Origin: a virus
Lineage: Duplodnaviria > Caudoviricetes
DNA: 64,000 bases
Direction: 5' to 3' (one strand)
Virus record (IMG/VR): IMGVR_UViG_3300005077_000012
Span: 23,220-87,219 of that record
Below the pieces are notes generated by a model, which worked only from the letters and a program-made list of their open reading frames with translations, was not told where the DNA came from and did no database searches. Of the stretch, positions 21,016 to 39,065 are shown one piece after another (position 1 is the first letter of the stretch; each line of letters starts with the position of its first letter). The translations under genes were made by a program, and so were the position numbers.

Positions 21016-22401
21016 TTAGAACCAGCCGAGAGTCGAAGGAGCAACGTTCTTAATCCTGATGTGCTGCACGCCCTTCTTCACTGCCATTGTCCCGAAGAGA
21101 AGCATGAGGAACGGATACACGGCCGCGTTGGTCGGGTACAGATCGAACTTCATCATCGGAAGGAACTGCGCCCACTCGATCGCGTCGTACATCGGGTCCA
21201 TCGTCAGCATGAACACATCCGAACATCCCGGAAGGTTGCTGTTGTAGTCGTAGACGTCTCCGGTGGTTGCCGGAGCTGCCGTGGTAAACGCGTACCGGAC
21301 AGTCGCACCAGTCACGCCACCCTTGATCGACCGATAAATCTTGATACCAGTCGATGCCGGGGAACCGTTGGTAATGTTGAAGATGACGCGATCGCCAGCA
21401 GCAACCCCAGTCACGATCTGCTCGGCAGTCGCCGTACCATCACCGTACTTGTTGACGCCGACGAGCTTGTACACATAGTCGCCAGCGTCAGTCGACGCAA
21501 ACTCAGAGCTTGCGTGTGTGGTATGAGTCACCGAGTTGACTGTGAGGGCACCGGGCCTGCTTGCGGTAATCGACGACGCTGAGGGAGTTGATCCTTCAGC
21601 AATGAAGATGTCCGCGCGGAGCTTCGGGGTACCGAACGGAGTCGGATAATCCTCGAATACGGTGCTACCCGCGTTTGCGCTCCCGGGAGTAAACCGGATG
21701 CGGTCCCTGAGCATCCTTTGAACGTCTGCCATGACCATTGTCGAGCAGAAGAGATCGGTCACCTTACCGAATGACTCGCGGATGTTCCGGGCACCGAGCT
21801 CGATCTTGTTGACGAAGTCCGCGCTGGTGGCGTCCTTGCCTCTGAGGTCGAGAACGTTGGTTGACGGTATCTGAGCGATCAGACCGTCAGGCTGCTCGGC
21901 AACGATTGAGCTGTCCCCGTAAAACAGGGCCTTCTCAAGGTTCCGAATGATCCAGAGCGCGCCTGCGTTTTTCTCCAGAGCCATCGCGTCTTCGATCATG
22001 TTCGAGACGCTGGCCTGCAGCGTAACCTTCCTGAGAGTCTGAAGGTACTTCGCAGTCGCATACGCGCGGGCGATCGTCTGTTCGCCTTCGATTGAGTCGC
22101 CACCTTCAGCAACCCACGCGCCGTCGTTTGCACCGACGTCGGTGCGCTTGTCCCACTGGTGGACCGGCGACTTGATCGGTTGTTTTTTGAGTCTCTGAAA
22201 GAGAACCGCGTCTTCCTGTGAGTGCAGGACGTTGACAAGAGTCGAGTCCAGACTCTCAGGGATGAGTGCCCGGCCACCGGTGAACGCCGCAGCGTCAACA
22301 CCGGAACCAGCAGAGAGGGCCTTGCTGAGGTAATCCAGAGTCTCCTCATTCGCCCGGGAAAAACCCTCGTAGCCGAGGTCTAATTGATTGAGAATATCCA
22401 T
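21016..22401 (-). CDS. Major capsid protein (Herelleviridae/Twort-K-like)
   Basis: 461 aa; propeptide ending LSKA followed by LSAGSG...GGRAL.PESLD, ...AKYL...RKV..., KNA..WI...LEKALFYGD..., C-terminal MPMMK.DL...LLFG...K; synteny protease-scaffold-capsid. Confidence 0.9.
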   Translation of the reverse strand: MDILNQLDLGYEGFSRANEETLDYLSKALSAGSGVDAAAFTGGRALIPESLDSTLVNVLHSQEDAVLFQRLKKQPIKSPVHQWDKRTDVGANDGAWVAEGGDSIEGEQTIARAYATAKYLQTLRKVTLQASVSNMIEDAMALEKNAGALWIIRNLEKALFYGDSSIVAEQPDGLIAQIPSTNVLDLRGKDATSADFVNKIELGARNIRESFGKVTDLFCSTMVMADVQRMLRDRIRFTPGSANAGSTVFEDYPTPFGTPKLRADIFIAEGSTPSASSITASRPGALTVNSVTHTTHASSEFASTDAGDYVYKLVGVNKYGDGTATAEQIVTGVAAGDRVIFNITNGSPASTGIKIYRSIKGGVTGATVRYAFTTAAPATTGDVYDYNSNLPGCSDVFMLTMDPMYDAIEWAQFLPMMKFDLYPTNAAVYPFLMLLFGTMAVKKGVQHIRIKNVAPSTLGWF

Positions 22402-22420: not shown

Positions 22421-23086
22421 TTACTGAACGCTCTTGATCAGGGCAACGTGCCGCTCATCAAGGGGTATGTTTTTATTGAGTCTGCCCTCGATCTTTGTGA
22501 CATCGAGAACGTCGAGCTTGCCTGCTTTGCAGAGCTTCATCGCTTTGTCGAGAATTTCGACACGGGACAGTGCGGAGGCCGCTTCCACAGCCTCAAACCT
22601 GTCACCGGACTTCCTGAGCACGGACCGTGACGGTACCGGCGCATCGCCGATCTTCTCAACGGTGTCCCGGACGGCCTTCTGCATCTCGGCAGACGCCACC
22701 GCGAACTGGACCTGCGCCTTGCTCAGAGCCGCAACGTCCTTAATGCTTTTCTGCATGGTGCTCACTGCCGCGTTCACCGCAGCGAACTTCTCGTCGATCC
22801 CCTTCACCAGTGATCTCAGGAAGGGCTCGATATCCATCGCGGCACCCGCATCTGCATCGTCCTCAGCGACAAACTCTTCGAGAGACTTCATGGTCGGCTT
22901 CTTGCCGTCCTCTTCGTCATCCTCATCGCCTTCTGCTTCCTCTTCTTCGCCGGGGAATTCGTTCGCTTCCTCGTCGTCCTTTTTCGCCTTCTGGAACGAG
23001 TTGAGAGTAGTCTTCAGCGACTCCAAAGAGTCATTGAAGGACTTCTCCATATCCTCAAATCCAACGGCTTCTAATGCCTTTGTCAT
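22421..23086 (-). CDS. Putative scaffold protein
   Basis: Acidic, helical 221-aa protein between protease and capsid genes; 11 [LMF]-x-K-[ASG] motifs. Confidence 0.65.
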   Translation of the reverse strand: MTKALEAVGFEDMEKSFNDSLESLKTTLNSFQKAKKDDEEANEFPGEEEEAEGDEDDEEDGKKPTMKSLEEFVAEDDADAGAAMDIEPFLRSLVKGIDEKFAAVNAAVSTMQKSIKDVAALSKAQVQFAVASAEMQKAVRDTVEKIGDAPVPSRSVLRKSGDRFEAVEAASALSRVEILDKAMKLCKAGKLDVLDVTKIEGRLNKNIPLDERHVALIKSVQ

Positions 23087-23088
23087 TG

Positions 23089-23934
23089 CTATCCTCCAAA
23101 ATAATTTTGTATTGTAGGCAATTTTCTTGTGATATATTGTATCAGCTCTGCTGATATGTTCGACGGGTACCCCCGGGACAGGATGAACTCCATCACGTCG
23201 TTATACGACTTGACCTTCCCGCTGGTGATCGCCGCCAGTAACGCGTCAAACACCCGACGGAGCTCCCCGTACGGGATCGAGTAGCCCTGCGCGTTGAACG
23301 TATCGCTCAGCTCCGATCCCTGTAAACTCTCCGGGGTCAACGCGCGCCCCCCGGTAAACGCCTCCGCATTGACCCCATCGCCTGCCATGAGGGCCTTCGC
23401 GAACTGCGCGAACGGGATGATCGAAACATGACCGAGCGTGCCGTCATTGACCGGCTTGTGTGTGATCGCGGTCTCATCCCAGATCACACGCATTATCATC
23501 CCCTTGACACCACCGGCGGACCCCTTCACTTTTTGGATTATTCCGCCGCCCACCGACGCACCGAGCTTCTTCGCCCCGGACAGGATATTCTGCCAGAGAC
23601 CCTGCGAAATCTTGTTCTCTTTATACAGGAACCCTTTTACCAGTGTTTCATTCCGGTCCGTAAATGCGACGTCACTCGGCTCGCCTATGATGTATTGAGG
23701 ATCGTGAATCTGCTTGTGCTTGTGGTCCCACGACAGGACGCCGTGTGTCAGATAGTAATCTGCCGCCTCCTTCAGGGCTTTACAGAAAACCACCTCAGAG
23801 TCCTGATCACGACTCTCATTCGACGCCTGCAGGTACACGTTCCACTTGCCGTCCTCCTCGACACCCTTAACAAGGGCCGACGCAAACGGAGAGTAAAACT
23901 GATCGCCACCCGCTGCCTGTATTGTCCTGCTCAT
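23089..23934 (-). CDS. Prohead protease
   Basis: AS.E.RD.D.EVV....L......G.L.WDH (catalytic His) and LG.SVGG (catalytic Ser) motifs, AITHKPVN; position upstream of capsid gene. Confidence 0.85.
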   Translation of the reverse strand: MSRTIQAAGGDQFYSPFASALVKGVEEDGKWNVYLQASNESRDQDSEVVFCKALKEAADYYLTHGVLSWDHKHKQIHDPQYIIGEPSDVAFTDRNETLVKGFLYKENKISQGLWQNILSGAKKLGASVGGGIIQKVKGSAGGVKGMIMRVIWDETAITHKPVNDGTLGHVSIIPFAQFAKALMAGDGVNAEAFTGGRALTPESLQGSELSDTFNAQGYSIPYGELRRVFDALLAAITSGKVKSYNDVMEFILSRGYPSNISAELIQYITRKLPTIQNYFGG

Positions 23935-24698: not shown

Positions 24699-27590
24699 CT
24701 ACTTAAACGATACGTCGACCCACGCCACCGGCACGATCGCCTTCGGGTTGCGCACACACCACTCATCATGCTGCAGCGGATTGCCGACCCCCGTATAACT
24801 CATAGACATCCCCTTCTTCCCGTATATTGTATCCCACTGAGAATCGTCCCGCTCACGGACGTGATCCCCGGGAGAGACTTTCCCCATCGACGTCCGGCAC
24901 TGGAGCATAACCCCGGAACCGCTCCGGGAGAATGTCCCGGCCACGTACTGCGCGCTCTTCGAGCTCGACTTCGCGAAGTAGATACCATCCCCGAGCAGAC
25001 GCCCGTTCTTCGCCGAACCGACCCGCATCCCGCCTTTAATGATACTGGCCCCGGCCTGAAAGTCCGTTCCGTGGTACAGGTACTGCTGATTGTCCTTTGC
25101 GTTCTCAATCGCTTTGTAGTCCCCGTAATAGTCGTGGTACATGACCTCCATGACCGCATTGACCTGCAACCGGTCTGAACTGTACCCGGACGACTGGTGA
25201 CTCCAGTCCGCCTTGATCTTGTCCATCCACTCCTTCTTCCCGGAGTCGCCCTTCCCTTTCAGGACGATCGTCGGCATGGTCCGGTTCCCCTTCGTCTTCA
25301 TTCCCATACTGATCGCGAGCTGTTCGGTTCTGATACCCTTGATCGCCGTGTGGTAGGCGTCTGACCCCAGCATGAGCTGATCCTTCTTCACTGGATTGTT
25401 CGGTGCGTGCGGTTTCAGACGACCCCAGCTCCACTCCGGGATAACCCGGGACTTCTTCGCCAGAGACCGCACGTTCCAGTTTGCACCGACCGCATACATC
25501 AGACTGGCCGCAGCAACGCCCTGAACGTACTGTGCATTGTACCGGTGATACTCAGACACTGACGCAACCGTCGTGTGGAACTTTCCCCGCAACAGGTTTT
25601 TTCTTACCGACTCATCGGTCTTCCCGAACTCTATCGCCGTACCAGACCGGTCCTTCTTCCACCCACCATACCCCTTGCTCGACGAACGCCACCGCCGCGT
25701 CGACGGACGAACGGCAGTGCTCATCTTCTTACCCATGTAATACTTGACAAGGCCCATTGACCCCGGCATCGCGTCGCCGTAATCCTTGAACCGGACATCA
25801 AAATTCACGACCGAGTTTGAGTACCGTCGATCGCTATCCCGCACCGCGCCGGTACATATTCGCTCCAACCCATTATCCAAATCTACCAGAGAGTACATCT
25901 CCAGAGACATAGCATCTCGATACGGTGTAAACAAGTTCTTCACCGCCTGCATGGTAGACTTCTCGTTGATTGGATACTTCCCCAACGTCCTGCCCGCATC
26001 GATGATCGAGTCAAAATACTCCATCCCTTTCCCTACATATCCACCGGTATTCGGATAGGAGACGTTGATCCCGTTATTCCACTTCACGGTCTTCGCGCGC
26101 ATCATACTCTTCAGATCGTTCGCAATATCACGCCACGTTGCCTCAGGGTTCAGATGCACCTTTTTACTAACCCCGTTACCCCGCGCGACCGCTCCGAGCT
26201 CAACGTAGTCCCGTGACTGCAACCACGAATCTACGGAGTACGCCGAGTCCGGGACAACCACATACTTCTGCAGGAACGCACTGATCGCCGGGTACTTCTT
26301 CCGAAGGGACTCCCCGGCAGCCTTCAGATCGTCATAACTGTACTGCTTCACCGGACCCGAATACGATGACCCAGACCATCCCGTATTCGCCACCTTCCCG
26401 TACTTCTCAAGCCACGGTTTGATAACCTTCTCACCATAGTCCGGATGCAATGCGCCCATTACAAAAGACGTGTACGTTTCAGAATCCCAATGCTGGTGTG
26501 AATTATAAACAACATCATCGATACCCAGCACCGTAAAAAACTCTTGTACCTTCGACGGCAGGTCCTTGTAAACGTCCCTCCAACGCTCGGTCACAGCAAG
26601 CAACTCCGCTCCCGGAATGATCGTGGAGACCAGTGCCCCCGGGAGCCGGTCAAGACTCTGCGTCCCCCGCAGAGAATAATCCAGCTCGCCCAGCTTCTCC
26701 AGCAGGCGCTTGTCATTTTCTTGCGCCTTCAGCAGGTTGATCCACCGCTGTGCAACCACCTGCGACTCCTCAACCTCACGATCAACGGCCGCATCGATAG
26801 CGCCCTGATTATATCCGTACCAGTTCTTCTGGACATACTCCGTAACGCGCTTCTTGTATGCTGCGGTCTTCGCCTCCGCCAGAAACTCCTCCATCTTCGC
26901 CTGCACCTCTTCGAGAAACAGCGGGTCCTCCAGCCACTTTCCATCGGAGCCCATCGGTATATCCGGGGCGATCTTCCCGAACTCGGTCTGCTGCTCCTTC
27001 GTCATCTTGAATATGTTGTCAAGGTTCTTCGACACATACTCCTCGGCCTCCTTGTTCAAGCAGAGCACACCCGTGATATCACACAGGTCCCGGGCATCAT
27101 CGCTGGCCTCACGCCAGTAGAGCTGGTGCTTCTTCGGTGCCTTGTCCAGCTCGGCGTCAGAGGGCCGATCGGAAGACACCGGGCTCGCCTGCCCGGACTT
27201 GCGCTTCTCTTCCTCCTCCTTCTTCTTTTTCTCCATGTTGTCTTTCATCTTGCCCAGACGTTTCTTGCGGGCCTGCTCGTCTTCGTATGCCTTGACGTCC
27301 GCAGGCGTGACCATGCCGTCGTACACCCACTTGCCGTTTGCGTCCTTCCGGACCCACTGCGCGTGCTTCGTCCCGAACCCGTGTATCTTCCGGGTCCCGA
27401 TCGGGAGCGGAGCCCCTTTCCGCAGCGTTTCGAGAAAAATTACAAGGCGCGCCTTACTTATCCCGGCCATGCGCTTGTATACTCCCATCACATAGGCGTA
27501 GTCGTCACCGCGCCCCTCCCGGGCGGCGGCCTCCTTTGCTTTCTCCCACTTCGCCTCGTCGACCGGCTTCCCGTGTATCTTCTTCGGCAT
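24699..27590 (-). CDS. Tagged large protein with C-terminal PARP-family ADP-ribosyltransferase domain
   Basis: Start MPKKIHG at 27590 after GGAGG; tag KGAPLPIGT...KDANGKW; C-terminal YLYHGT...GIYFAKSSSKSAQYV...HDEWCV (H-Y-E triad). Confidence 0.85.
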   Translation of the reverse strand: MPKKIHGKPVDEAKWEKAKEAAAREGRGDDYAYVMGVYKRMAGISKARLVIFLETLRKGAPLPIGTRKIHGFGTKHAQWVRKDANGKWVYDGMVTPADVKAYEDEQARKKRLGKMKDNMEKKKKEEEEKRKSGQASPVSSDRPSDAELDKAPKKHQLYWREASDDARDLCDITGVLCLNKEAEEYVSKNLDNIFKMTKEQQTEFGKIAPDIPMGSDGKWLEDPLFLEEVQAKMEEFLAEAKTAAYKKRVTEYVQKNWYGYNQGAIDAAVDREVEESQVVAQRWINLLKAQENDKRLLEKLGELDYSLRGTQSLDRLPGALVSTIIPGAELLAVTERWRDVYKDLPSKVQEFFTVLGIDDVVYNSHQHWDSETYTSFVMGALHPDYGEKVIKPWLEKYGKVANTGWSGSSYSGPVKQYSYDDLKAAGESLRKKYPAISAFLQKYVVVPDSAYSVDSWLQSRDYVELGAVARGNGVSKKVHLNPEATWRDIANDLKSMMRAKTVKWNNGINVSYPNTGGYVGKGMEYFDSIIDAGRTLGKYPINEKSTMQAVKNLFTPYRDAMSLEMYSLVDLDNGLERICTGAVRDSDRRYSNSVVNFDVRFKDYGDAMPGSMGLVKYYMGKKMSTAVRPSTRRWRSSSKGYGGWKKDRSGTAIEFGKTDESVRKNLLRGKFHTTVASVSEYHRYNAQYVQGVAAASLMYAVGANWNVRSLAKKSRVIPEWSWGRLKPHAPNNPVKKDQLMLGSDAYHTAIKGIRTEQLAISMGMKTKGNRTMPTIVLKGKGDSGKKEWMDKIKADWSHQSSGYSSDRLQVNAVMEVMYHDYYGDYKAIENAKDNQQYLYHGTDFQAGASIIKGGMRVGSAKNGRLLGDGIYFAKSSSKSAQYVAGTFSRSGSGVMLQCRTSMGKVSPGDHVRERDDSQWDTIYGKKGMSMSYTGVGNPLQHDEWCVRNPKAIVPVAWVDVSFK

Positions 27591-27615
27591 GGCTATACCC
27601 CTCCAGTAATCTTGA

Positions 27616-28749
27616 TCATGCGCCCGCCTGCTTTGCCATCGCAGCGTCGAGCATATCATAGTATTTCTTCATACCCGGCGTATACCGGGTCCATGTACAC
27701 CTGCAGTGCGGGTGTTGCGTCCCGGCAGCAACCCACCACTCCCGGGCCTTCCGTCCAAAATTGTTCTTACCCGGCCAGATCGCGGTATACCGGGTCCCGT
27801 CAACCTCTATCGTATCATCACCACCGGACGGGGCCGCATCCAGCAGCACCACGATCCGTCCGTTGATGTGTGTGGCACAGAACGTACAGGCCCCCGGCCC
27901 GGACACCCCACGCATGAACACGAACTCATCCGGAGACGTCACCTTCTCGGCCACCAGATACCCGTTATTAAAATTCGTCGCGGTCTCGGTCTCCGCGATC
28001 CTGCGCCAGTCCCGGTTGAGTGTTGAGAACGTATCGAACAGCTTCCGCTCGGTCTCCCGGGCCGTCAGGCGGTTCTTCTGCGCGTCCAGTATGGACGACA
28101 CCACCGCCCGGCGCGCGCTGTCCGATATATCCTGTATCAACTCCCCGGTATGCACTTCGGAGAAGTCCCTAATGTTCCGGTAGACCTCGTCGGCCGTCAG
28201 CTTCTTTACCTCGGCGTCGACAGCAGGTTTCAGGTCAGTATACGTCTTGCTGATCTGGTCCTCGACCGGCATCCCCTGTAATATCTTACCCAACGCCATC
28301 GCCCGAAGGACCAGAGACTGCTCGACCTCACCGAACAGGTACCCGAAAACACTGTCCAGATCGTGTGCAATCACCTCCCACTCCGCCCGGGTCAGGGCCT
28401 GCCCGGTCGACGGGTTTATGTACGTCGTCCCGTTCAGGATGAACGGATCATCCCCCACGGCCTTGCGAAATTCATCGAAATGGTCCCCCATCCCCTTCGC
28501 GACATCCAGCCTCAACCACTTCGTCGTAATCTCAGTCAGGACCCGCTGCAGCCCCGCCCGCACCTGATCCCGCAGAATATCGCTGAGCTCCTGCAGGGCC
28601 GGGTAGGGCGTCGGCTCGGTTTTCTCGGTATGGTTGTGTGCAACCTCGGCCGGGACCTTCAGGGCCTTCGACAGGGCCTCGACGACTGCCCGGAGCTTCT
28701 GCTCCGCCTTGTCTTCCGGATTGTGTATCTCAATTATGATCTTTTCCAT
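27616..28749 (-). CDS. MuF/SPP1 gp7-like minor head morphogenesis protein
   Basis: RDWRRIAETET..F..G, G.C.FC and terminal HPHCRC motifs of the MuF family; no C-terminal toxin extension. Confidence 0.85.
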   Translation of the reverse strand: MEKIIIEIHNPEDKAEQKLRAVVEALSKALKVPAEVAHNHTEKTEPTPYPALQELSDILRDQVRAGLQRVLTEITTKWLRLDVAKGMGDHFDEFRKAVGDDPFILNGTTYINPSTGQALTRAEWEVIAHDLDSVFGYLFGEVEQSLVLRAMALGKILQGMPVEDQISKTYTDLKPAVDAEVKKLTADEVYRNIRDFSEVHTGELIQDISDSARRAVVSSILDAQKNRLTARETERKLFDTFSTLNRDWRRIAETETATNFNNGYLVAEKVTSPDEFVFMRGVSGPGACTFCATHINGRIVVLLDAAPSGGDDTIEVDGTRYTAIWPGKNNFGRKAREWWVAAGTQHPHCRCTWTRYTPGMKKYYDMLDAAMAKQAGA

Positions 28750-28869
28750 AGCCCTCGTATTCGCTTCCAGAGGCCCTGTACGGGGCCCGCGCAGGCTCCG
28801 GGTAGGTTACCCCTCCCCGGGCAGATCGGACGCTGCCCCACGCAAAATAACGGCAGTAGCGGCCGACCC

Positions 28870-31221
28870 TCAGAACAGTCTGTGCCGGAGCCCGACCACA
28901 TACGCCAGACGCCGGATCGCTTTCAGCAGTTTCGGCCCGAAATGCTTTTTCAACAGGCCCTCGAACTTCCCGTCCTCAAACATCGCATAGGTCGGATCGA
29001 CCTCCGGGAACCCCCAGCCGAACGGATTGTCCGCCGCGTCCCCCACCGCATCCATACGCTCGTCCGTCGTCGTATACTCCGGCTGCTTCGCCTTGTACCG
29101 GATAAACTGGTCAAAGGTCCGGGCGAACACCTCGTTGACGTCGCCCCAATACCGGGACCGCTTCGAGTAATAGTCGGAGTGTGTCTGCTTGCGGAATGAG
29201 TGTACGGTAACCTCGGACAGGTGCTGTGAATACATCTCGAACGCTCGGTCCACAACCTTTGCCGGTGCAAAACGTACCCGGTCAACGATCGATTTCAGAT
29301 CGTCCACAGAATAGACTCCCTTCGTCTCCGATACGATCGCAGGACCATGCTTGTCCGGGTCATTCAACGCATTGCGCAGCGTCGAAAGGAACTCATCCGG
29401 CGTAACGGTTCCGTACCGATCATCCGCCTGATTAGCGTTGTGGAGCATGGCACGCAGGCTCGGCTCAACGATCTCAACGAACTTCAGGACATCCAGACCC
29501 TTACGCCCGGCAAGGTCCGGGTGCGCCGTCAGGTACCCGCCGATTTCCGACAACGCCACGGCAGACGACTGATCGATGTACGTCTTGAACGCCGCATGAG
29601 ACGGATTGAATGTCTCCTTGATCTTCTGCTCAAGACCAGACGCCTTGACCCACTCCTTGAACTCGTCGACCAACACCTTCCCGCCCCGGTAAAAAAAGTA
29701 ATGTCCCGCTTCGTGTACGATCGCCCCCGGGTACGACGGGGAGATATTCAACGAATGGTCCTTCTCGACGTAGAACCCGGCCGCCTTCTTCGACGCCTTC
29801 GCAATCCGCAGGATCATCTTCTTCCCGTCTGACGGAACGTAGTCCTTGAAATTGACCACGGACGAGATCGTCGAGAACACCTTGAACAATGCCCGCAGGC
29901 TCGGGGCCGACAGCTTCGCCTCCCTCCCGGGGATGATCGCATCGGTTGTGATCTCCAGACCGATCTCATCCCGGAACGCGGTGACGAGCTTCGCAATCTT
30001 CGGATCAGTCGCCATCAGGTGATCTTTATACCCGGCGGTCCCCTTGACGTACTTCATGATCCGCTTCTTTGAACTCTCATCCGCGAACTTGTTCAGGACC
30101 CCCTCGATCTTGTCGTACGGTATCGGAATGTACGGCAGAACGAGGATCGAACGCCGCGTCGGATTGACATCGGAGAACTGGAGTCCAACCCGGCCGTCAG
30201 TCATCACCATCGAACCGGTTATCCCCAACTTCCCGATCGGCTCACGCTGCATCGCATTGTAGGATTGCCTCAACTGCGCAGCGGCGGCAGTCGCATAACG
30301 CAGATTGGATATGGCGTTCCTCGAAGGAACATCCAGACCGGACTGCACACTCTCAAGGGCCATCAGGTCCTGATACAAGGTTCCCGCCGCGCCGATCGAC
30401 TTCGAGTCCAACAGGCCGTCCTCGAAGTCCTTGAGCTGCTTCCACCCGGTATAAAAGTCTGCCGCGTCCGGCGGCTGCACTTTCTCCCGAACCGCGTCCG
30501 GGAGCGCGTCGAGTTTTTGCTGCAGGCTCTCCAGAACGGCCTTCAGCGCATACTCCATCGACGGAGCCGACTCATAATCCCACGTTGCCGACATCGCGGC
30601 CTCGGCGTCCAGCCCGGGAACCTTCTTTTCCTCAGCCTTCTTCGGAACCACCTTCGGTTTCTCCGGCTTCGGCCGCGTCCACATCGCCACCGACGGCCGC
30701 CCCATAATCTTCTCATCATCGTCCAACTGCACCCGGTCCCACGTCACGATCTCAGCGTTGGCGTCCTCCTTGCTCAGGCGGAAGCGTTCCTGCGCCTCCT
30801 CCAGTGTCAGGTTGTCATACTCGGTAACCGGGCTGCCGTCGACGTGCACAACGAACACACGGTGCGTGTTCGCACGCTTCGCCTTCGGAGCATCGGGCTT
30901 CTTCACCTCCGGGGCCTTCGACCCTTCCATGAGCTTGTGCTTCAGTACATATTTGACGATATCGGTGTCGCCCTTCAGGTCGTGCCCGACTTCGGCCTTC
31001 ACCTTCTCGATGATCTCTTTGCGTCGGTCCGCAGTGAGCTTCGCCCACCAGTCGAGAACCTTTGCACGCTCAGGCCACGGCCGGGCACCCTCATGCACCC
31101 CATCAACGACCTCAACCCACTTCTTATCCGACGCCTTCCGATACTTCCGACCCTTCCATTCCCGGATCGTACCAACCGGGTACGCCTTCCCTTTGATCAT
31201 CAGTCTATAGATTTTTAGCAC
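28870..31221 (-). CDS. Tagged large protein with zincin (HExxH)/LPD1-like C-terminal domain
   Basis: N-terminal tag KGKAYPVGTIREWKGRKYRK...W; IVHEAGHYF and YYS...YW...NEVFARTFDQFI. Confidence 0.75.
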   Translation of the reverse strand: MLKIYRLMIKGKAYPVGTIREWKGRKYRKASDKKWVEVVDGVHEGARPWPERAKVLDWWAKLTADRRKEIIEKVKAEVGHDLKGDTDIVKYVLKHKLMEGSKAPEVKKPDAPKAKRANTHRVFVVHVDGSPVTEYDNLTLEEAQERFRLSKEDANAEIVTWDRVQLDDDEKIMGRPSVAMWTRPKPEKPKVVPKKAEEKKVPGLDAEAAMSATWDYESAPSMEYALKAVLESLQQKLDALPDAVREKVQPPDAADFYTGWKQLKDFEDGLLDSKSIGAAGTLYQDLMALESVQSGLDVPSRNAISNLRYATAAAAQLRQSYNAMQREPIGKLGITGSMVMTDGRVGLQFSDVNPTRRSILVLPYIPIPYDKIEGVLNKFADESSKKRIMKYVKGTAGYKDHLMATDPKIAKLVTAFRDEIGLEITTDAIIPGREAKLSAPSLRALFKVFSTISSVVNFKDYVPSDGKKMILRIAKASKKAAGFYVEKDHSLNISPSYPGAIVHEAGHYFFYRGGKVLVDEFKEWVKASGLEQKIKETFNPSHAAFKTYIDQSSAVALSEIGGYLTAHPDLAGRKGLDVLKFVEIVEPSLRAMLHNANQADDRYGTVTPDEFLSTLRNALNDPDKHGPAIVSETKGVYSVDDLKSIVDRVRFAPAKVVDRAFEMYSQHLSEVTVHSFRKQTHSDYYSKRSRYWGDVNEVFARTFDQFIRYKAKQPEYTTTDERMDAVGDAADNPFGWGFPEVDPTYAMFEDGKFEGLLKKHFGPKLLKAIRRLAYVVGLRHRLF

Positions 31222-31222
31222 G

Positions 31223-32005
31223 CTACTCCCCCATCAGATCAGACATCAGCTTCTCCATCTCTCGGTCCAGCCCGCGCAGTTCCTCCGCCGTCGTCTGTGA
31301 AACCTTCCGCGCATGATACAGGATTTCCCGCAGACCCATCTGTATCTTCGTTACCTGCTCCATGTTCGCATCGAATAACTCCTCCCGGGTCACATCCGCC
31401 GCGTAGAAGTACAGATCGTTCAGGATGGAACTCGCCAGCGCAATCAACGACTCGACCTTCCCTTCACTGAAGGTCCGGAACTCCACCTCGTCAAACTCCT
31501 CCATCGGGTGCTCCCGAAACATATTCCGAACCTCACGCAGCAACTGAGTCCGCAATTCAACCAACACCAGACGGTAGATATTAAACGAGTCACACAGAGT
31601 CGCGTGCTGGATGGACTTCCGCTTCAACAGGTCGATGTATATCCCCTGCATCAACAGCAGCAACTGATCACCACGCTCCTCGGCATAACTCATCTGCCCG
31701 CGTAACAGCAGCACGTTCCTGATCTCCAGCTTCCGGGTCAAGAGCTTGACCGTCTGGTTCAGCATCGTCACAACATCCCGGGAATGAGGGCACATCGCGT
31801 GCGGGCTCTTGACAGGCTTCGCCTTCGCCCTTCCCGGAACCCCGTCACCACCGATGTCCAGCTCCTTACCGCCGCTCACGATCCGCAGACCCCGACGGAC
31901 GATCAGGATCGCAGAGTACCCCAGCATGAACGTCAGGCCGGACGCGAATACCATCTGAAACCACTTCGGCAAGTCATTGAGCCAGTCTATAAATGTCGTA
32001 AACAC
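31223..32005 (-). CDS. Membrane-anchored coiled-coil protein
   Basis: One hydrophobic segment (WFQMVFASGLTFMLGYSAILIV) followed by a long helical domain. Confidence 0.65.
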   Translation of the reverse strand: MFTTFIDWLNDLPKWFQMVFASGLTFMLGYSAILIVRRGLRIVSGGKELDIGGDGVPGRAKAKPVKSPHAMCPHSRDVVTMLNQTVKLLTRKLEIRNVLLLRGQMSYAEERGDQLLLLMQGIYIDLLKRKSIQHATLCDSFNIYRLVLVELRTQLLREVRNMFREHPMEEFDEVEFRTFSEGKVESLIALASSILNDLYFYAADVTREELFDANMEQVTKIQMGLREILYHARKVSQTTAEELRGLDREMEKLMSDLMGE

Positions 32006-32041
32006 CGAAACCCCCCGCGCACGATCCCGAACGCCGTCACG

Positions 32042-34783
32042 TTAAATCCGGACCCACTGATCCGCTGCTTCTTTCCTGTAACTCACCCCGGCGCGGGAAC
32101 GCTGCGTCCCGATCGGGAGTGCTCCGCCCCGGTTGAGCTGCCAGTAGCGCTCCTCACGCTTGATACTCTTCGCGAGATCGTCCGGGAGCTCCTGCGACTT
32201 CTTCGCTTTCGCCTCACGGAACTTCTTCGCCACGAACGTCCCGGCGGCGTCAATGCTGGAGAACTCGCCCTGACTCTCCCCACCACGCTCCACGGACACT
32301 TTACCGGAACCGTCGGTGTGCTTCTTCACGGACCACCACTCACCGTCAGGACCTTTTACTGTACCCGATGAATCTCCTTCCATACTCTCAAGGATACCCT
32401 CGGCCTCGGCGGACAACCCGTCGTCCCCGGCAGGCTTCGCATCGGACTCATGTCTCTCTCCAGACGACACACCGTAGTTCTTCACATACTTCTCCACCGC
32501 CTCTTTAACAGTCTTTGACTGCGCCGTCGTCGAAAGGTAATGGAGCCGCTTTGTATCCGGGTCCTTATACCCCAGATCGATCTGTCCGTGATTGGTCTTC
32601 CACCCCTTGATTGTATCCAGATTGATCTGAGGGTCTTTGACTCCCAGCTCCTTCAGCTTGTTTAAAATCGGACGTGCGTTATACTTCGACCCACCACCAG
32701 CAGCGGGCTTGCCCTCTTTCACAGGCTCCCACTTCCCGGCAGCGACCTTCTTGTACTTCTTCCCCTTCCAGTCACGGATTGTCCCGGGCGGAAGTCCTCG
32801 GCCTTTGTTCAGCCAGACCACCGTGTCCTCCTTGCGCAGCTCCTCGATCGCCTTGCTCATGTCTTCCGTTTCGAGAAATTTTGCAGGCGTCTCTGCAACC
32901 TCAAGCTCCGCATCCGGAGTCGTCGTCCCCAGCCCGATATTCCGCTTCGCGTTCAACGTCAATTTCCACTCGTTCATAAATTTCCTCGCCTTAAATAGTT
33001 TGCCCTGCCCTTCTGCCTCCATCGCAGCATCCCGGAGCTTCGACAGGTTTTTCTTCGCCTCTATATGTGTTTGTATCGCCTTCAGATCATCCGGATCAAG
33101 CTCCGACCGCAATGCCGCTTCAGGGACTTCCTTCCATCCCCCGGTCCTCGATGAATGATCATAGTACTCGGCCTCGACTTTGCCCTCGGCAGTCACCCGG
33201 TACCCATTCGCGTCCAGTATGTCCTTGATTGACTCAGGGTCCGCATCTGCCTTCGCCTGATCGTACCGCTCCTGCGCCGACCCGCCGCGCTTCTTCTCCG
33301 CACGCTTCCCGGACTCATGCTTCTCGCGCTCGGCAGCCAGCTCCTTCTCCATCCGGGCCTTGTCATCCGCATCGCGCTTCGCCTGCGCTGCGTCGCGCTC
33401 GGCCTGCGCCTTCTTACCCGCCTCGTATTCCCCGGGAAGCTCGTCGATCCTCTTGCTGACCTTGTCCGCACCCTGCTTCTCGACGATCTTACCCAGCGCA
33501 TTGATCGCCTTCTGCCTGCCCCCCAGCTCCCGGACAACCAGCATCCCGGTCTTCTTGTCAACCAGAGCGTACCCGGCCTTCCCGGACGGGAACGTCATGT
33601 CAAACCCCCAGAACTCCCGGTCAAGGTCCTTCACCTTCGCGGGTTTCATCGACGTACCCTCGGGGACCTTCACCACATTCCCCATGTGATCCGACACCTC
33701 GGTCGGGGCCTTCTCACCTTTCGCTGCGCCCTTGTCCGATTTCTTCACGGCAGCACCGGCCTGCTTGCTTGCCTCGGCAGCCCCGGCCACACCGCCGCCT
33801 TCGCTCGTCGCCTCGACGGTCTTCGCCGCGCCCTTGACGGCGGCCTCACCTTTGCCCGCAGCCTCTTTGATCCCACCCGCAATGTCCTTAACCGAATCAG
33901 ATATGCTCTGTGAACTCGACGTCGACGCCTGCTTCTTTAACCGCTCCAGCATCGCGTCCAGATTGGACTTGTCCTCACTGTCCGGCAGGTTCTTAATGTC
34001 CGACTTCAGCTTCTCATACGTCGCATCCCCGAGCTTCCCGCCCGTCTTCGGGGCCGCATCAGAATCACGCCCTCCCGTACGCACCGCCTTTACCGCAGCC
34101 TTCACCTGCTCATCAGAGGCCCCGGGCTTCAACTTCCCCGTAATTTTGTTAAGTGTATCCACGTCGAGTCCGATATAGTCATTGCTCGCAGAATCCTCCG
34201 CGCTCCACGCCCGCATAACACGGTTCTCCAAAACCGTCTTTTCACCTTTATCCATCTGGGGCTCCCCAGCCTGCGCATCACCTTCAGGCTCGCCCTTCGC
34301 TGCACCCTTGCCACTCTTCACGCGCACCCAGCCGGTGTCTCCCTTGCGGTACTTCTTTCCCTTCCATTCCCGGATAGTCCCGACCGGCAACGCCTTCCCC
34401 TTCTCCAGAGACTCCAGCTCTCGCAGACTCTTCGCTGCACTCTCCATCCTATCAAGACGGGTGTAATAGTCCGGTATCTCGGCCAGATGATCCCGCGCAA
34501 TCTTCTCGGCCAGCTTCGGGTCATCGGTGTGCTCGGCCTCGACCTCGATCCCACGCTTCAACTGCTCCGGGTCCGGGCTCGTCTTCGCGGTCTGACTCCG
34601 GCCCTTACCAATGAAAGACCCCAGAATCGCATAGATCATCTCCTCGACCCCGTGCTTGTTCCACCCATGCGCCTCGGCCCACTCATGGACCTCGTAGTCC
34701 TCCGGCTTCGGGTTCTCACTCAAGAATCGCTCAACCTGCAGCCTGCTCGGGCGTGCCTTATCGAGTTTTTGTACGCGTATCAT
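32042..34783 (-). CDS. Tagged large protein (three tag copies) with N-terminal DUF5661-like domain
   Basis: EQLKRGIEVEAEHTDDP..AEKIARDHL.EIPDYYTRL (DUF5661-like); tags near 34320-34410, 32720-32810 and 32045-32140; low-complexity K/A/E/G linkers. Confidence 0.8.
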   Translation of the reverse strand: MIRVQKLDKARPSRLQVERFLSENPKPEDYEVHEWAEAHGWNKHGVEEMIYAILGSFIGKGRSQTAKTSPDPEQLKRGIEVEAEHTDDPKLAEKIARDHLAEIPDYYTRLDRMESAAKSLRELESLEKGKALPVGTIREWKGKKYRKGDTGWVRVKSGKGAAKGEPEGDAQAGEPQMDKGEKTVLENRVMRAWSAEDSASNDYIGLDVDTLNKITGKLKPGASDEQVKAAVKAVRTGGRDSDAAPKTGGKLGDATYEKLKSDIKNLPDSEDKSNLDAMLERLKKQASTSSSQSISDSVKDIAGGIKEAAGKGEAAVKGAAKTVEATSEGGGVAGAAEASKQAGAAVKKSDKGAAKGEKAPTEVSDHMGNVVKVPEGTSMKPAKVKDLDREFWGFDMTFPSGKAGYALVDKKTGMLVVRELGGRQKAINALGKIVEKQGADKVSKRIDELPGEYEAGKKAQAERDAAQAKRDADDKARMEKELAAEREKHESGKRAEKKRGGSAQERYDQAKADADPESIKDILDANGYRVTAEGKVEAEYYDHSSRTGGWKEVPEAALRSELDPDDLKAIQTHIEAKKNLSKLRDAAMEAEGQGKLFKARKFMNEWKLTLNAKRNIGLGTTTPDAELEVAETPAKFLETEDMSKAIEELRKEDTVVWLNKGRGLPPGTIRDWKGKKYKKVAAGKWEPVKEGKPAAGGGSKYNARPILNKLKELGVKDPQINLDTIKGWKTNHGQIDLGYKDPDTKRLHYLSTTAQSKTVKEAVEKYVKNYGVSSGERHESDAKPAGDDGLSAEAEGILESMEGDSSGTVKGPDGEWWSVKKHTDGSGKVSVERGGESQGEFSSIDAAGTFVAKKFREAKAKKSQELPDDLAKSIKREERYWQLNRGGALPIGTQRSRAGVSYRKEAADQWVRI

Positions 34784-35021
34784 GTTTCTTGCCTCGCTTT
34801 GATTTTTTCATGCTTGAACCTGTATGACTAACGAGTGCCAGAACCTCCGGGATCGGAGAGCACCTGAGACACCCGTAAATATAATTCCCAACACCGCCAT
34901 GCCACGGACCAACTTCCACCCTGAACATCCACTCCCAGCGGAACGAACGCTCACACAACACACACCGTCTCCTCCGAAACGTGAACACCCTGTGCACCCG
35001 GGTCGGCCCACCAGCACGCAC
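34758..35021 (-). CDS. Small Cys-containing hypothetical protein
   Basis: CVLCERSF...CLRC pairs; exact start uncertain. Confidence 0.4.
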   Translation of the reverse strand: MRAGGPTRVHRVFTFRRRRCVLCERSFRWEWMFRVEVGPWHGGVGNYIYGCLRCSPIPEVLALVSHTGSSMKKSKRGKKHDTRTKTR

Positions 35022-35287
35022 TACAGGACCTCCATCAATATCCCGCAGTACTGACCCACGTACAGCTCGCGCTCCACCGGTCCCTCGAACGGGCTATCGT
35101 ACGTCAAGACCCGCTGCTTGTCCGACTCGACAAGGTCCTCGGGCCCGACCTGATCCCCATCCACATCACAATTCGCTCCGACATAAAACGCATCCGGGTC
35201 CAGCGTCTCATACCATGCACCCATCCCGATCAGCGTGCGATTTTCCTCGATACCGCGCCAGTACTCCACAATGTTATACGCCATCAC
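35021..35287 (-). CDS. Hypothetical protein
   Basis: 88-aa acidic ORF overlapping the upstream stop codon. Confidence 0.6.
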   Translation of the reverse strand: MMAYNIVEYWRGIEENRTLIGMGAWYETLDPDAFYVGANCDVDGDQVGPEDLVESDKQRVLTYDSPFEGPVERELYVGQYCGILMEVL

Positions 35288-37317
35288 CGCAACTCCCGCA
35301 TTATAGTCTGATAGATCGTCTCGAAGTGTCCGTTCCAGATCGCTCCACCCTGATCGTACTTCATGAAATTGGCCTTGAACTTCTTCATGCCTTCAACCCC
35401 GTCCTTCTGGACGACCTGATTTTCAAGGAACCGCTTTTTCTGTTCAGGCTTCAGCTTGTATACATACTGCAGGTTGTCCCGTATATGCTGATCAGTCTCC
35501 GGCGTCGTCTTATATCCCCGGGCAAGGAACTTGAACGACCTGAGCGTATAGCGCGGAGAGTGTGGTAACATCTTCGGATTGCAGAACTCCAGCGTCTTGC
35601 CCTCCAGTGCCGAGAGACCCTTCCCGGTCGCATCAATCATCACCCCGGTCAACGGGTCCAACTGCAGCGAGTTGATCGTGAAGTCCCGGGACTCAGCGTC
35701 GCCCTTCAGCCGCCAGCCCTTGACCTGCCACGATGGAACGTCGTCAGAGTGTTTGTGGACCGGCGTGATATCCACATCGACCCCGGCGTCCTTGATAGTC
35801 ACCAACCCCAGCCGGTCATTCAACGACCACGTATTCGCCCACGCCGGATTGAGTCCCTTGACTATGTGCTGCAGCTCGCCGTCAGAGCAGTTCGCAATGA
35901 AGTCAACATCCTTCGAGTCCCCGCCCTGCAGGAAGTCCCGGACGGTCCCACCCACGATCGTCAACGTGAACCCGGCAGCCTTGAACGTCTCACACAGCTT
36001 CCGGTACGTCACCTTCGATTTACCAATACGCGTCTCCATGACCTTCGCCACCGACGCGGCCATCTCCCCAGAGATATGAAACAGGTTTTTATCTTCCAAA
36101 CCATCATACAGCGAGTGCTCCTGTATTACCCCGTCAGGCTTAACGTTCTGCCAGCGTGAGTCGATCACCCGGCCATCGCTCATCTTGATCAGTGCAGTTC
36201 CCTTGTTCCCCAGAGCAACCAGCTTCCCACGCTGACCGGAATACTTCTGGTGCCCCTGCCCGGTATAGACCACACTCTGCCCCTCGATCATCCGGTCCCG
36301 ACGCGTGGTATCCTTTATCAACTGCTGCGCGGCCCCGGCGGCCACATCCTGCAGCTTCCCCACCTTGACACTGACCGCATGGTCCTGTAGCGCCTGCGCC
36401 GCTGCCTTGTTCTGCGCCGGTGTCGGGGCCTTCGCGCCCGGGTTTACCACACCGTCGTACAGCCACTTCCCGTCTGCACCCTTCTTGTACCAATAGTTCC
36501 CGTACTGCTTGCGTGTCCCGATCGGATCGCCGCCCTTCTGCATTTCGAGATATTTTGCAGGCCCGAACCGCATCGTCCTGAAATTAAACAAAGGGACCAT
36601 CATCCCGATCCCCTTCGATAGATCATCCAGATCATCAGCACTCTTCTTGTACCCCAGCCGCTCGCTCAGGGCTTCCTTCGCGGCCTGCTTGCGCTGCGCA
36701 TCCCGCTCAGCCCACTGCGAACCCTTTGCGCTCTCGTCCGGGCCCTTCGCCGGAGCTTCGCCATCCTTCACCTTAACAATCTTCACCGCGCCCTTGATCG
36801 ACTGGACGTTCCCCTGACCTTCCGGGGCTTCAGGATTGAAACGGGTCTGCCACTGCATCGCGAACTTGCCATCCCGGGAATACAGCCGCTTCTGCTCATG
36901 GTCCAGACGCCCACCCCGGAACAACTTCCGGGACTCGTCCCCCAGCTCGCCCATCGCCTCCTCAAACCGGTGCGACAGCTTCGCAGGCGTGTTCACGTAC
37001 GCCGTCGCCATGTCTTCCTTGTCCTCAGTGGACATCTCCCCGGACGACGGGTCCCCGGGCTTGTCCGATCCACCCCCGGGACGCTCGGCACCCTTTTCCT
37101 TCCCAGCACCCAGCGGGGACCACTGCCCCTCGGCAACCTTCCGATACTTTGTTCCACCCCAATCAGCAACGGTCCCGACAGGCATCCGCTTGCCCGCCTT
37201 CACGAACGCCTCCGCGTCAACGCAGTTAACCCCGTGGTACACAGGGCCAGACAGGTCGTCTATCATTTCGAGAATTTTTGCAGGTGCCACAACCGGAAAG
37301 TCTAATATTCGTGCCAT
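35284..37317 (-). CDS. Tagged protein (two tag copies) with C-terminal class II nucleotidyltransferase (CCA-adding/poly(A) polymerase fold)
   Basis: IVGGTVRDFL...KDVDF (motif A, DxD), VDIT (motif C), ESRDFTINSL (motif B), G...D..G.G...L, SPRYTLR (altered motif D). Confidence 0.85.
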   Translation of the reverse strand: MARILDFPVVAPAKILEMIDDLSGPVYHGVNCVDAEAFVKAGKRMPVGTVADWGGTKYRKVAEGQWSPLGAGKEKGAERPGGGSDKPGDPSSGEMSTEDKEDMATAYVNTPAKLSHRFEEAMGELGDESRKLFRGGRLDHEQKRLYSRDGKFAMQWQTRFNPEAPEGQGNVQSIKGAVKIVKVKDGEAPAKGPDESAKGSQWAERDAQRKQAAKEALSERLGYKKSADDLDDLSKGIGMMVPLFNFRTMRFGPAKYLEMQKGGDPIGTRKQYGNYWYKKGADGKWLYDGVVNPGAKAPTPAQNKAAAQALQDHAVSVKVGKLQDVAAGAAQQLIKDTTRRDRMIEGQSVVYTGQGHQKYSGQRGKLVALGNKGTALIKMSDGRVIDSRWQNVKPDGVIQEHSLYDGLEDKNLFHISGEMAASVAKVMETRIGKSKVTYRKLCETFKAAGFTLTIVGGTVRDFLQGGDSKDVDFIANCSDGELQHIVKGLNPAWANTWSLNDRLGLVTIKDAGVDVDITPVHKHSDDVPSWQVKGWRLKGDAESRDFTINSLQLDPLTGVMIDATGKGLSALEGKTLEFCNPKMLPHSPRYTLRSFKFLARGYKTTPETDQHIRDNLQYVYKLKPEQKKRFLENQVVQKDGVEGMKKFKANFMKYDQGGAIWNGHFETIYQTIMRELR

Positions 37318-37428: not shown

Positions 37429-39012
37429 TCACTGGACGATTATACGCAGGACGCGCTCGTCTCCCATTGACTTCTCAAACGCGGCCCGCCAGTCTTCTCC
37501 GGGCTCCTGCCCATCTTCAGCACCATCGCCACCCGGCTCTCCGCCGTCCCCCGGCAGCATCTCCTCACCGGGGACGCCTCCAGCTTCCGGAAGAGCTCCC
37601 TCATCTCCGCCATCGTCAGGCGCGCCTCCGGGCCCCCCCATCGTCTCGGCCTGCTTCGACTGTGCGTATATCTGAACAGCCTGCGGATTGAGAACAACAT
37701 TCGCGTAATCGTCTTCGATCGGATCATCACCGTCCTCCTCCCGCAGCTCATTGATAGTCTTCGTTGTCTCGATCATCTGCCGCCGTATCTGCATCCGCTG
37801 GAGCTCGTCTTCCCGCTCGATCCCGGTGAACTCAAACGACCACTCCGTCGTGACCTTGCGTATGATCTTACCGACGTGCTGCTCAGCGAACGCCAGCAGT
37901 GAACTCAGGCCGCGATCCCGGGACGCCTTAATCCTCGGCTCCCCACTCTCCCCGATGATCGACTGACTGTCATCCGCCTTGATCCCGATCTCAGCAAGGT
38001 CGATCGAGAACACCGCACCGATAACCGACGACAGGAACATCATGAGCTTGTGATATTCCATGTCCCGGTTCGACTGCCCGAGATTTTTGAAGTCCATGCC
38101 GACGCCCTCTTTCCCGCTCGGCAGGATCGGGATATTCCACGCTCCCCCGGCCCCGCTCATGGCCGCGTACCAGTACCGGCGGATTGAGTCCATCTGCGTC
38201 TGCCCGATGTCCCCCATTACCGATATGAACCCCTTCGGCACCCGGTCCCGGACGAGCTGGTCCCGGATGTAGTTATACCCGAACAGCAGCGTCGTGATCA
38301 GGTCAATGCACTGCTCAACCGGAGAGTAACCCCAGCCACGGAACCGCAGGTCCACCCGCTTGTTCTTGTAGTCGAACAGCAGGTCCTCGGACGTGTACTG
38401 GTTGTAAATTTTGTTGTCGATCTCTTGAACGAACCTGATGTCCTTCTTGAATGGACTCTGGTCCACCTCGGTAGTCACGCGCTTGATGTACGCCCCGTCC
38501 AGCAACCAGAACGCGATCGCCTCGCCCTTCCGGTTGTACTGTATCTCGGTCGCCACCTGATCGATGACCAGCGTCTCCCGGATCAGCATCGACAGGTAGT
38601 CGCTGAAGTCGTCCTCGCGGTCTGCATCATACTTGAACCCGGTCTGATCTATGAAGTTATGCAGCTCCCGGATCAGGGCCTGATCCCCCTTGACCGACTC
38701 CTTCCCGTCCCCGTCCATCGTCCGGATCAAATGAAACCCGCGCTTGCCACGCTCCTCGGTGAACTTCGTGAACGGCAGGCACTGGTCGATCCGTGCGTTG
38801 ACGATTGCGTTGATCAGCGGAATACGGTCCACGGTGTTGCGGATCGTAATGTAATTTATTCGGAGCAGCTTCTCCCGGACTCCCCGGAGTGCCCCTGACT
38901 GGACGAACGACATATACTCGGGCATACTCAGCAGTGATTGGAGCTTCGCTGCAGTCGCCTCCATGTTGATCAAGGCCGACCGCCTCTCTCCACGCTTCGT
39001 ACGCTTCGCCAT
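37429..39012 (-). CDS. Portal protein
   Basis: Twort/K-like portal motifs (LVIDQVA.E...R.G....F..LDG..I, GYSPVEQ, NRDME(Y/F)..L......F.ID..EIG, S.D.GL..LL); start MAKRT after GGAG. Confidence 0.9.
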   Translation of the reverse strand: MAKRTKRGERRSALINMEATAAKLQSLLSMPEYMSFVQSGALRGVREKLLRINYITIRNTVDRIPLINAIVNARIDQCLPFTKFTEERGKRGFHLIRTMDGDGKESVKGDQALIRELHNFIDQTGFKYDADREDDFSDYLSMLIRETLVIDQVATEIQYNRKGEAIAFWLLDGAYIKRVTTEVDQSPFKKDIRFVQEIDNKIYNQYTSEDLLFDYKNKRVDLRFRGWGYSPVEQCIDLITTLLFGYNYIRDQLVRDRVPKGFISVMGDIGQTQMDSIRRYWYAAMSGAGGAWNIPILPSGKEGVGMDFKNLGQSNRDMEYHKLMMFLSSVIGAVFSIDLAEIGIKADDSQSIIGESGEPRIKASRDRGLSSLLAFAEQHVGKIIRKVTTEWSFEFTGIEREDELQRMQIRRQMIETTKTINELREEDGDDPIEDDYANVVLNPQAVQIYAQSKQAETMGGPGGAPDDGGDEGALPEAGGVPGEEMLPGDGGEPGGDGAEDGQEPGEDWRAAFEKSMGDERVLRIIVQ

Positions 39013-39065
39013 TCGTTTCTCCGATGTGTGTGTAGTGTGTGAGCCTTCCCTCTCTCTCACCATCT

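Follow-up and report, generated by a model that had tools for sequence, protein, structure and literature searches.

The DNA studied here, called the window below, is a stretch of 64,000 nucleotides (nt) covering positions 23,220 to 87,219 of the IMG/VR virus record IMGVR_UViG_3300005077_000012 (Duplodnaviria; Caudoviricetes), a record of 87,219 bp that is rated 96% complete. The genes of the head region all lie on the minus strand and encode, in the order of transcription, a portal protein, a protein of 677 amino acids (aa), two open reading frames (ORFs) of about 88 aa, proteins of 913, 260 and 783 aa and a MuF-like protein of 377 aa, followed by a 986-aa ORF, a 152-aa ORF, the prohead protease, the scaffold and the major capsid protein. 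The 677-, 913-, 783- and 986-aa products are the large proteins of a cassette (window positions 24,699 to 37,317) and share a motif of about 30 residues, h-x-K-[GAS]-x(1-3)-P-x-G-T...Y-[RK]-K...W (h, hydrophobic residue), which we call the tag and which is present in seven copies. An earlier reading of this DNA (the original prediction) had described the interval from portal to protease as MuF and four large proteins; these are all there, but so are the 260-aa ORF, the 152-aa ORF and the two ORFs of about 88 aa, which that description left out.

All seven tags quoted in the original prediction were recovered, in frame and within the four large ORFs, by a six-frame regular-expression scan of the whole window, and a profile built from them revealed no further copy anywhere in the 87,219-bp genome. 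Six of the seven start, as had been proposed, at [LMF]-x-K-[AG], the seventh having Arg instead of Lys. That the four proteins carry different cargo was likewise borne out by Pfam scans and the translations (PolyA_pol, DUF5661, a HEAGH motif with weak LPD1, and PARP), with one Pfam-recognised effector domain in each. The cassette proteins, each followed by its tags, are:

35284..37317, minus strand: 677-aa cargo protein; leader, tag 1, an unknown segment, tag 2 and a class II nucleotidyltransferase head domain (PolyA_pol, expectation value (E) 2.8e-17, residues 453-576; phrog_2244, tRNA nucleotidyltransferase)
37120..37206, minus strand: tag 1 of the 677-aa protein, residues 38-66, starting F-V-K-A
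36463..36543, minus strand: tag 2 of the 677-aa protein, residues 259-285, starting M-Q-K-G, of the divergent 'PIGTRK' subtype, then W-L-Y-D-G-V-V
32042..34783, minus strand: 913-aa cargo protein; DUF5661 (E 2.6e-14), tag 1, a low-complexity/coiled segment of about 500 aa, tag 2, a segment of about 195 aa and C-terminal tag 3
34328..34408, minus strand: tag 1 of the 913-aa protein, residues 126-152
32729..32812, minus strand: tag 2 of the 913-aa protein, residues 658-685, with an M-S-K-A site 16 residues upstream
32054..32137, minus strand: tag 3 of the 913-aa protein, residues 883-910, degenerate, its edge Lys replaced by Arg, with L-A-K-S 13 residues upstream
28870..31221, minus strand: 783-aa cargo protein; tag at the extreme N-terminus, a HEAGH zincin-type motif read from the translation, and weak LPD1 (E 7.7e-4, under the Pfam cut-off)
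31117..31200, minus strand: tag of the 783-aa protein, residues 8-35, whose DNA is 64-82% identical to that of two tags in the 913-aa protein
24699..27659, minus strand: 986-aa ORF; leader, tag, an unknown segment of about 700 aa and a C-terminal PARP-type ADP-ribosyltransferase (PARP, E 2.5e-14, residues 829-928)
27327..27425, minus strand: tag of the PARP protein, residues 79-111 in the numbering of the 986-aa ORF; it belongs to the 'PIGTRK' subtype and has an insertion of 5 residues

The PARP protein probably starts at Met24 (27590), giving the 963-aa form used by the gene caller and the protein database; the 986-aa longest ORF begins 23 codons before the database start and would overlap the end of the MuF gene. 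Residues 154-655 of the 913-aa protein gave no match in the Pfam scan, and the tag-delimited segments of 188, 502 and 691 aa in the window proteins matched no family.

Two of the tags, tag 2 of the 677-aa protein and that of the PARP protein, belong to a divergent subtype (P-I-G-T-R-K ... K-W-[LV]-Y-D-G). Since tags within the window are only 64-82% identical in DNA at best, we regard them as old paralogous segments kept by selection at the protein level. Each consists of the core only and is followed by linkers rich in Gly, Lys and Pro, save that tag 3 of the 913-aa protein lies at the very end of its chain and is followed by no cargo. A separate 19-nt DNA motif (CCTGCAAAATTTCTCGAAA, up to 3 mismatches) has nine copies on both strands of the window against 0.01 expected, at positions 24266, 32869, 36543, 37266, 41435, 45224, 46233, 53143 and 54785. 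Its three best copies lie inside the cassette, in coding sense, and encode P-A-K-[FYI]-L-E upstream of tags. As six of the nine fall outside the cassette, we rejected it as a tag-specific element and regard it as genome-wide.

The tag as a protein module and its partners

The tag is a conserved module that extends well beyond this phage. A word-indexed search with the seven-tag profile yielded 161 proteins, and an exhaustive search of 1.84 billion representatives matched 1,323 protein clusters at E<=1e-3, of which 274 also pass E<=1e-10; chance is excluded, since independent proteins of other phages match the profile with E down to 1e-36. Among the best 150 of these matches the first tag begins within residues 1-75 in 133, and longer proteins carry more tags, with a mean of 1.1 in those shorter than 300 aa and of 2.65 in those longer than 1,300 aa. 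Internal tags have a leader helix of their own, as N-terminal tags do, so that long tagged proteins look like fused units of leader, tag and cargo. In the window the tag is placed N-terminally in three of the four proteins, in addition to the internal copies and the single C-terminal one.

The family consensus is L-x-K-G-x-G-[YL]-P-V-G-T-[IV]-R-E-W-K-G-K-K-[YF]-x-K-x-A-P-G-K-W. In most relatives the tag lies in the middle of a larger module, about 130 residues long, made up of two leader helices, a beta-meander and three more helices, and the helices after the tag bear the signature R-F-S-D-x-x-G-x-P-L-P. This extended module was seen at the N-terminus of tagged ORFs in L002, L003, L005, L009, L012 and L018-L081 (our numbers for loci of relatives). 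AlphaFold2 models the tag core as a helix and a three-stranded sheet, the sheet with a predicted local distance difference test (pLDDT) score of about 80; for a 135-residue extended form the mean pLDDT is 80.7, reaching 88-93 over residues 50-130. These models argue that the tag is a folded module and not a linker: a small domain, basic and aromatic, predicted to run from a helix into a three-stranded beta-meander.

Neither the tag nor its extended form gave any match in Pfam (E<=10), or in NCBIfam and PHROGs (E<=1). A PDB sequence profile search with the tag returned nothing below E 0.8, and with Foldseek neither tag model matched the PDB at E<=0.001. The best VIA-align Z scores, 3.5 for a 60-residue model and 7.9 for the 135-residue model, correspond to no convincing solved fold, the latter reflecting only generic three-helix arrangements over residues 70-135. 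An ESM Atlas search produced no usable match to the tag, and no paper came up in a literature search for the motif string. The WW domain, marked in Pfam by two Trp and a conserved Pro, also has a three-stranded sheet, as is predicted for the tag; we considered this family and rejected it, since the Trp pair of the tag is 13 residues apart as against 20-22 in the Pfam signature, and since no Pfam match was obtained. A conserved, profile-detectable tag module shared across more than 1,000 clusters of cargo proteins thus appears to be new, and one of the unnamed LPDs of Iyer et al. (LPD1-40) might overlap with it.

What the module is attached to varies widely. A Pfam scan of 110 tagged representatives found ddrB-ParB in 17, LPD3 in 11, PBECR1 in 8, PBECR3 in 7, PBECR2 and LPD1 in 6 each, SAM lyase in 5 and InPase in 4; other partners were ART-PolyVal, Topo IB, Zeta toxin, RelA_SpoT, NUDIX, ADP-ribosyl exoenzyme, methylase-helicase, RadC and LPD13. 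In relatives several such domains are combined in one polypeptide, and in L007 DUF5661 is fused to InPase and ART-PolyVal. The tag is therefore portable, as the original prediction held, in that one profile family is joined to many distinct enzyme domains, and because these enzymes act on unrelated targets a shared tag fits a part in trafficking better than one in catalysis.

The further claim that cargo is decoupled from MuF also stands: MuF is a separate gene in the window, Pfam and PHROGs gave no MuF match in the four cargo proteins, and neither Phage_Mu_F nor ArdC occurs in any of the 110 tagged representatives. Four of ten MuF homologues in relatives carry a fused InPase or other C-terminal domain (for instance L005:2150-3985, L009:1699-3963 and L002:1685-4237), so MuF-fused and tag-headed cargo coexist in the lineage.

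The head lineage that bears the tag

The tagged proteins are encoded in a late module, among the following genes of the window:

37429..39063, minus strand: portal protein, 544 aa, the upstream boundary of the cassette, with an acidic C-terminal tail (Pfam Phage_portal, E 2.8e-14)
31223..32005, minus strand: untagged 260-aa ORF with a hydrophobic N-terminal segment and no significant family in the scans
27616..28749, minus strand: stand-alone MuF-like minor head protein, 377 aa, with a conserved L-S-K-A-L near the N-terminus (PHROG head-morphogenesis matches and homologues)
23089..23934, minus strand: prohead protease, 281 aa, with F-A-K-A-L and then a block copying the N-terminal block of the capsid protein (phrog_1028, E 9.6e-15)
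22421..23086, minus strand: scaffold protein, 221 aa, with 11 h-x-K-[SAG] sites and an acidic stretch (called from site enrichment and a homologue in L007)
21016..22401, minus strand: major capsid protein, 461 aa, in which conservation begins sharply at L-S-K-A-L (residue 25) (SU10_MCP, E 9.3e-7; about 29% identity to SPO1-like capsids)

The MuF assignment rests on weak PHROG head-morphogenesis matches together with seven of ten homologues that match Phage_Mu_F.

The context of the tag was followed in 33 IMG/VR records and in 30 genome loci reached by pattern search, a sample that favours close relatives. A homologue of the capsid protein (32-52% identity) is present in 27 of the 33 tag-bearing IMG/VR records, and the other six are fragments with a completeness of at most 43%; a prohead protease was found in 12 of 15 records, and portal homologues (29-34% identical) occupy the equivalent position in related loci. 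The order that recurs is portal, then MuF (frequently as a fusion with InPase), then polyvalent and tagged proteins, then the protease (mostly joined to the scaffold) and lastly the capsid. Some relatives also have tagged genes directly downstream of the capsid gene, and five fuller genomes have 10 of their 11 tags no farther than about 10.5 kb from that gene. One reference contig has three tagged genes within 20 kb. SPO1-like phages possess a distantly related head module (capsid identity about 29%) in which the portal gene adjoins that of the protease, and there we found neither MuF nor a cassette.

With tblastn no match to the tag was obtained in 72,556 plasmids, although the cargo domains are widespread, nor in 50,697 isolated phage genomes. 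It had been anticipated that matches to a hidden Markov model of the tags would fall in portal-MuF-protease loci with variable enzymes attached, and every tag-bearing phage contig that is complete enough shows such an arrangement, with one and the same capsid and protease lineage. The data do not describe the opposite outcome raised at the time, a generic domain with no link to head genes, because the tag is confined to one head lineage and its head module while the payloads are promiscuous. A lineage-specific trafficking part with promiscuous payloads is a pattern seen in delivery systems.

Of the 30 reference-genome matches to the extended tag (L053-L082), 25 fall in metagenome-assembled genomes of Treponema and a further one in a different spirochaete. 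This suggests that the main reservoir of the tag is formed by prophages of gut, rumen or termite spirochaetes. The window phage has a G+C content of 56%, unlike the typical composition of Treponema, yet it has kept the tag, and its host may differ from Treponema. Elsewhere in the window, positions 10001-14000 drop to a G+C of 0.41-0.48 against 0.55-0.59 in the remainder, and judged by this drop may be a recently acquired segment.

A motif shared by scaffold, head proteins and tags

The motif at the edge of the tags recurs in the head proteins. In the 221-aa scaffold h-x-K-[SAG] occurs 11 times against 1.6 expected, a count reached by none of 500 shuffles, and it is enriched 5-9-fold in every scaffold or protease-scaffold examined, including that of a Bacillus SPO1-like phage. 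Taking together the window scaffold, that of L017 (5186-5920) and the protease-scaffolds of L002, L003, L005, L012 and L013, there are 11-16 sites where 1.2-3 are expected, with no shuffle reaching these counts. Capsid bodies, portals and cargo proteins overall show no such enrichment. We accordingly discarded the idea that cut motifs are enriched across whole cargo proteins: the four proteins of the window have 5, 9, 3 and 8 sites against 3.8, 6.0, 4.4 and 5.4 expected, which is not significant.

In both the capsid protein and the protease conservation starts at h-x-K-A-L, and an alignment of MuF shows a conserved h-x-K-A-L near the N-terminus. Beyond this site the capsid protein (about residues 25-52) and the protease (about residues 178-207) share a block of about 28 residues, K-A-L-x-A-G-x-G-x-D-x-x-x-F-x-G-G-R-A-x-x-P-E, that is conserved from SPO1-like phages (L017, Bacillus phage Goe2) to the present lineage (L003, L013). 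The shared block may be a common region of cutting or recognition, or may mimic the capsid arm and so bring the protease into the procapsid.

T4 scaffold is dense in sites for its protease. By analogy, h-x-K-[SAG] is probably the recognition site of the prohead protease, with the cut after Lys, and its presence in SPO1-like scaffolds suggests that the cut-after-Lys rule applies to this family of prohead proteases including that of the Herelleviridae. A literature search for a published cut site of the SPO1-like prohead protease family found nothing usable.

The tags carry the motif with great regularity. In 208 tags outside the window h-x-K-[SAG] lies no more than 10 residues before P-x-G-T in 95% (random 5%), and a second site, h-x-K-[SA], lies 8-34 residues upstream in 63% (random 12%). 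The likeness between the tag edge ([LMF]-x-K-[AGS]) and the capsid-boundary site, to which the original prediction had drawn attention, is thus strengthened, though indirectly, as the same pattern is enriched in the scaffold and bounds the capsid protein, the protease and MuF. The upstream sites of the 913-aa and PARP proteins (M-S-K-A, L-A-K-S and I-S-K-A) are closer to scaffold sites than the tag edges are.

A candidate loading module for injected proteins

We propose, with moderate confidence, that the tag is the trafficking part of a cassette of virion-packaged polyvalent proteins, which would be loaded, trimmed and injected. The four large proteins would be made together with the head proteins, and the tag would bring a single protein, or every unit of a fusion, into the procapsid of this type of head. 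During maturation the prohead protease would trim the cargo at h-x-K-[SAG], either at the edge of the tag or 8-34 residues upstream; if the upstream K-[SA] were the site used, the leader would be lost and the tag would stand at the new N-terminus. The cargo would then be carried in the capsid and delivered with the DNA into the host. Packaging, cleavage, injection and a docking partner are things that we infer from sequence. A trafficking role is favoured by the unit-initial position of the tag, by partner enzymes with unrelated targets, by restriction to one head lineage, by absence from plasmids and from MuF fusions, and by the protease-type motif. More tentatively, the tag could be a universal loading label, such that any tagged protein of a lineage mostly associated with spirochaetes is recruited, clipped at h-x-K-[SAG] and injected.

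A number of observations weigh against this proposal. In the 913-aa protein DUF5661 comes before the first tag and tag 3 ends the chain without cargo after it, so a strict unit of N-terminal tag followed by cargo, as originally conceived, fails in the window. The presence of two or three loading signals per protein is unaccounted for, as loading needs no multiple tags. The core of the tag is about 55-85% identical between phages, against 25-40% for portal, MuF, protease and capsid, and this high conservation, with the basic and aromatic make-up, fits an invariant ligand such as DNA better than docking on fast-evolving head proteins. Association with one head lineage could reflect common descent alone, and that lineage has no isolate among the phage records searched. 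Edge sites in the window are K-G in five of six cases, where scaffold sites are K-S or K-A in 10 of 11, and the tag-edge motif could be structural rather than a cut site. Moreover, Iyer et al. name a zincin domain, and not the prohead protease, as the processor of polyvalent proteins (PMC5512222), and the 783-aa protein itself bears a zincin motif. A complex prediction of the tag with MuF gave no answer (score 0.00) and speaks neither for nor against binding.

The main rival is that the tag is a nucleic-acid-binding module, which would keep cargo attached to the packaged genome or, once inside the cell, to nucleic acid of host or phage, with no part in recruitment into the procapsid. The tag is strongly basic, with conserved aromatics on the predicted sheet (W-K-G-K-K-Y-x-K...G-K-W); its repetition within a protein points to multivalent contacts with a repetitive ligand, for which a core conserved beyond any head protein of the same phages would also be expected if that ligand is invariant; and many partners (ddrB-ParB, PBECR, Topo IB, methylase-helicase) act on DNA or RNA. 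We nevertheless judge this unlikely. The tag is also found on enzymes that have no evident reason to bind DNA (SAM lyase, InPase, Zeta toxin, RelA_SpoT and ADP-ribosyltransferases), it has no sequence or fold match to known DNA-binding domains in the Pfam, PDB profile, Foldseek and VIA-align searches, and such binding leaves the N-terminal bias, the restriction to one head lineage and the protease-type motif unexplained.

Alternatively, the tags might do no more than present cut sites to the zincin of the cassette or to the prohead protease, loading being achieved by other means such as the leader helices or MuF. Zincin-like peptidases have been argued to process polyvalent proteins (PMC5512222), and the HEAGH motif and weak LPD1 match of the 783-aa protein, together with the place of the tags at unit boundaries bearing h-x-K-[SAG], are compatible with this; so are the leader helices before most tags, which a cut at the upstream K-[SA] would remove, much as the T4 targeting sequence is removed. 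A cut site, however, needs few residues and not a folded, conserved module of 30 to 130, most tagged proteins are single units with one N-terminal tag and nothing to separate, and LPD1 or a zincin is present in a minority of them, all of which makes processing alone a still weaker candidate. Least probable, in our estimation, is a role during or after ejection, in which the tag would be a handle for translocation through tail or membrane, or an adaptor to a conserved host component. The high conservation of the tag across phages with diverged proteins, and the apparently narrow range of hosts in which Treponema predominates, make a conserved host ligand conceivable, and the virion RNA polymerase of N4 has a separate injection region (PMC5512222). 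Such a role would leave unexplained both the protease-type motif and the sharing of the module by cargoes with different targets; and the window phage, which from its G+C content may infect a host other than Treponema, keeps the tag all the same.

The loading proposal can be set beside systems already described, and in their light the term 'candidate new system' used in the original prediction is overstated, since both packaged polyvalent effectors (PMC5512222) and the capsid-targeting signals of T4 and P1 (PMC9024508) were known. Polyvalent proteins, described in 2017, are large, are encoded by late or virion genes beside MuF and were predicted to be packaged in the head and injected (PMC5512222). 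Tagged proteins across the present lineage bear the same set of domains (LPD1/zincin, ART, nucleotidyltransferase, ddrB-ParB, PBECR and InPase), and the cassette, in the window as in relatives, lies among late genes between the portal and the protease or capsid. With one recognisable effector domain each, the window proteins are less 'polyvalent' than the archetypes; functionally the cassette belongs with the phage-type polyvalent proteins. What distinguishes it is that one small conserved module heads the proteins and their internal units, and the main text of PMC5512222 names no shared trafficking or packaging module.

In T4 an N-terminal capsid-targeting sequence on the internal proteins IPI-III and on Alt is removed by the prohead protease, and the cargo, once injected, counters host defences; the first 30 residues of P1 DarB suffice to load a reporter into capsids, and for the Dar proteins the authors found no recognisable targeting consensus (PMC9024508). 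Like these signals, the tag is mostly N-terminal on unrelated proteins and is proposed as an address for the procapsid. It differs from them, peptides of about 10-30 residues, in being conserved, predicted to fold, present in over 1,300 clusters and repeated inside proteins, and, unlike the T4 signal, it would probably remain attached to the cargo if cleavage took place at its N-terminal edge. We found no sequence relationship of the tag to the T4 or P1 signals.

With MuF polymorphic toxins the cassette has in common the portal-MuF module, variable effectors and the delivery from within the head that we propose, and relatives do have MuF-InPase fusions. In the window, by contrast, MuF is a bare protein of 377 aa and the cargo is encoded by separate genes; the feature of MuF within the effector polypeptide was looked for and is absent, so the cassette is no MuF-fusion system. 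In giant phages like phiKZ and SPN3US the ejection proteins share a protease cut motif and are trimmed in maturation (PMC7411985, PMC10052503). Their protease cuts after Glu and their cargo has no shared folded tag, whereas the cut considered here would fall after Lys.

Injected phage proteins are hard to tell from sequence, as the signals of T4 and of P1 DarB are short and without a usable consensus. If the tag does direct loading, the anti-defence and takeover enzymes injected by an uncultured lineage could be listed from sequence, the swapping of cargo between related phages would become traceable and there would be a handle with which to load foreign proteins into capsids. The motif h-x-K-[SAG] also offers a testable cut-site rule (after Lys) for a family of head proteases common to SPO1-like phages. 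If true, our proposal would add a third route, beside MuF fusion and untagged packaging, within the theme of the polyvalent proteins.

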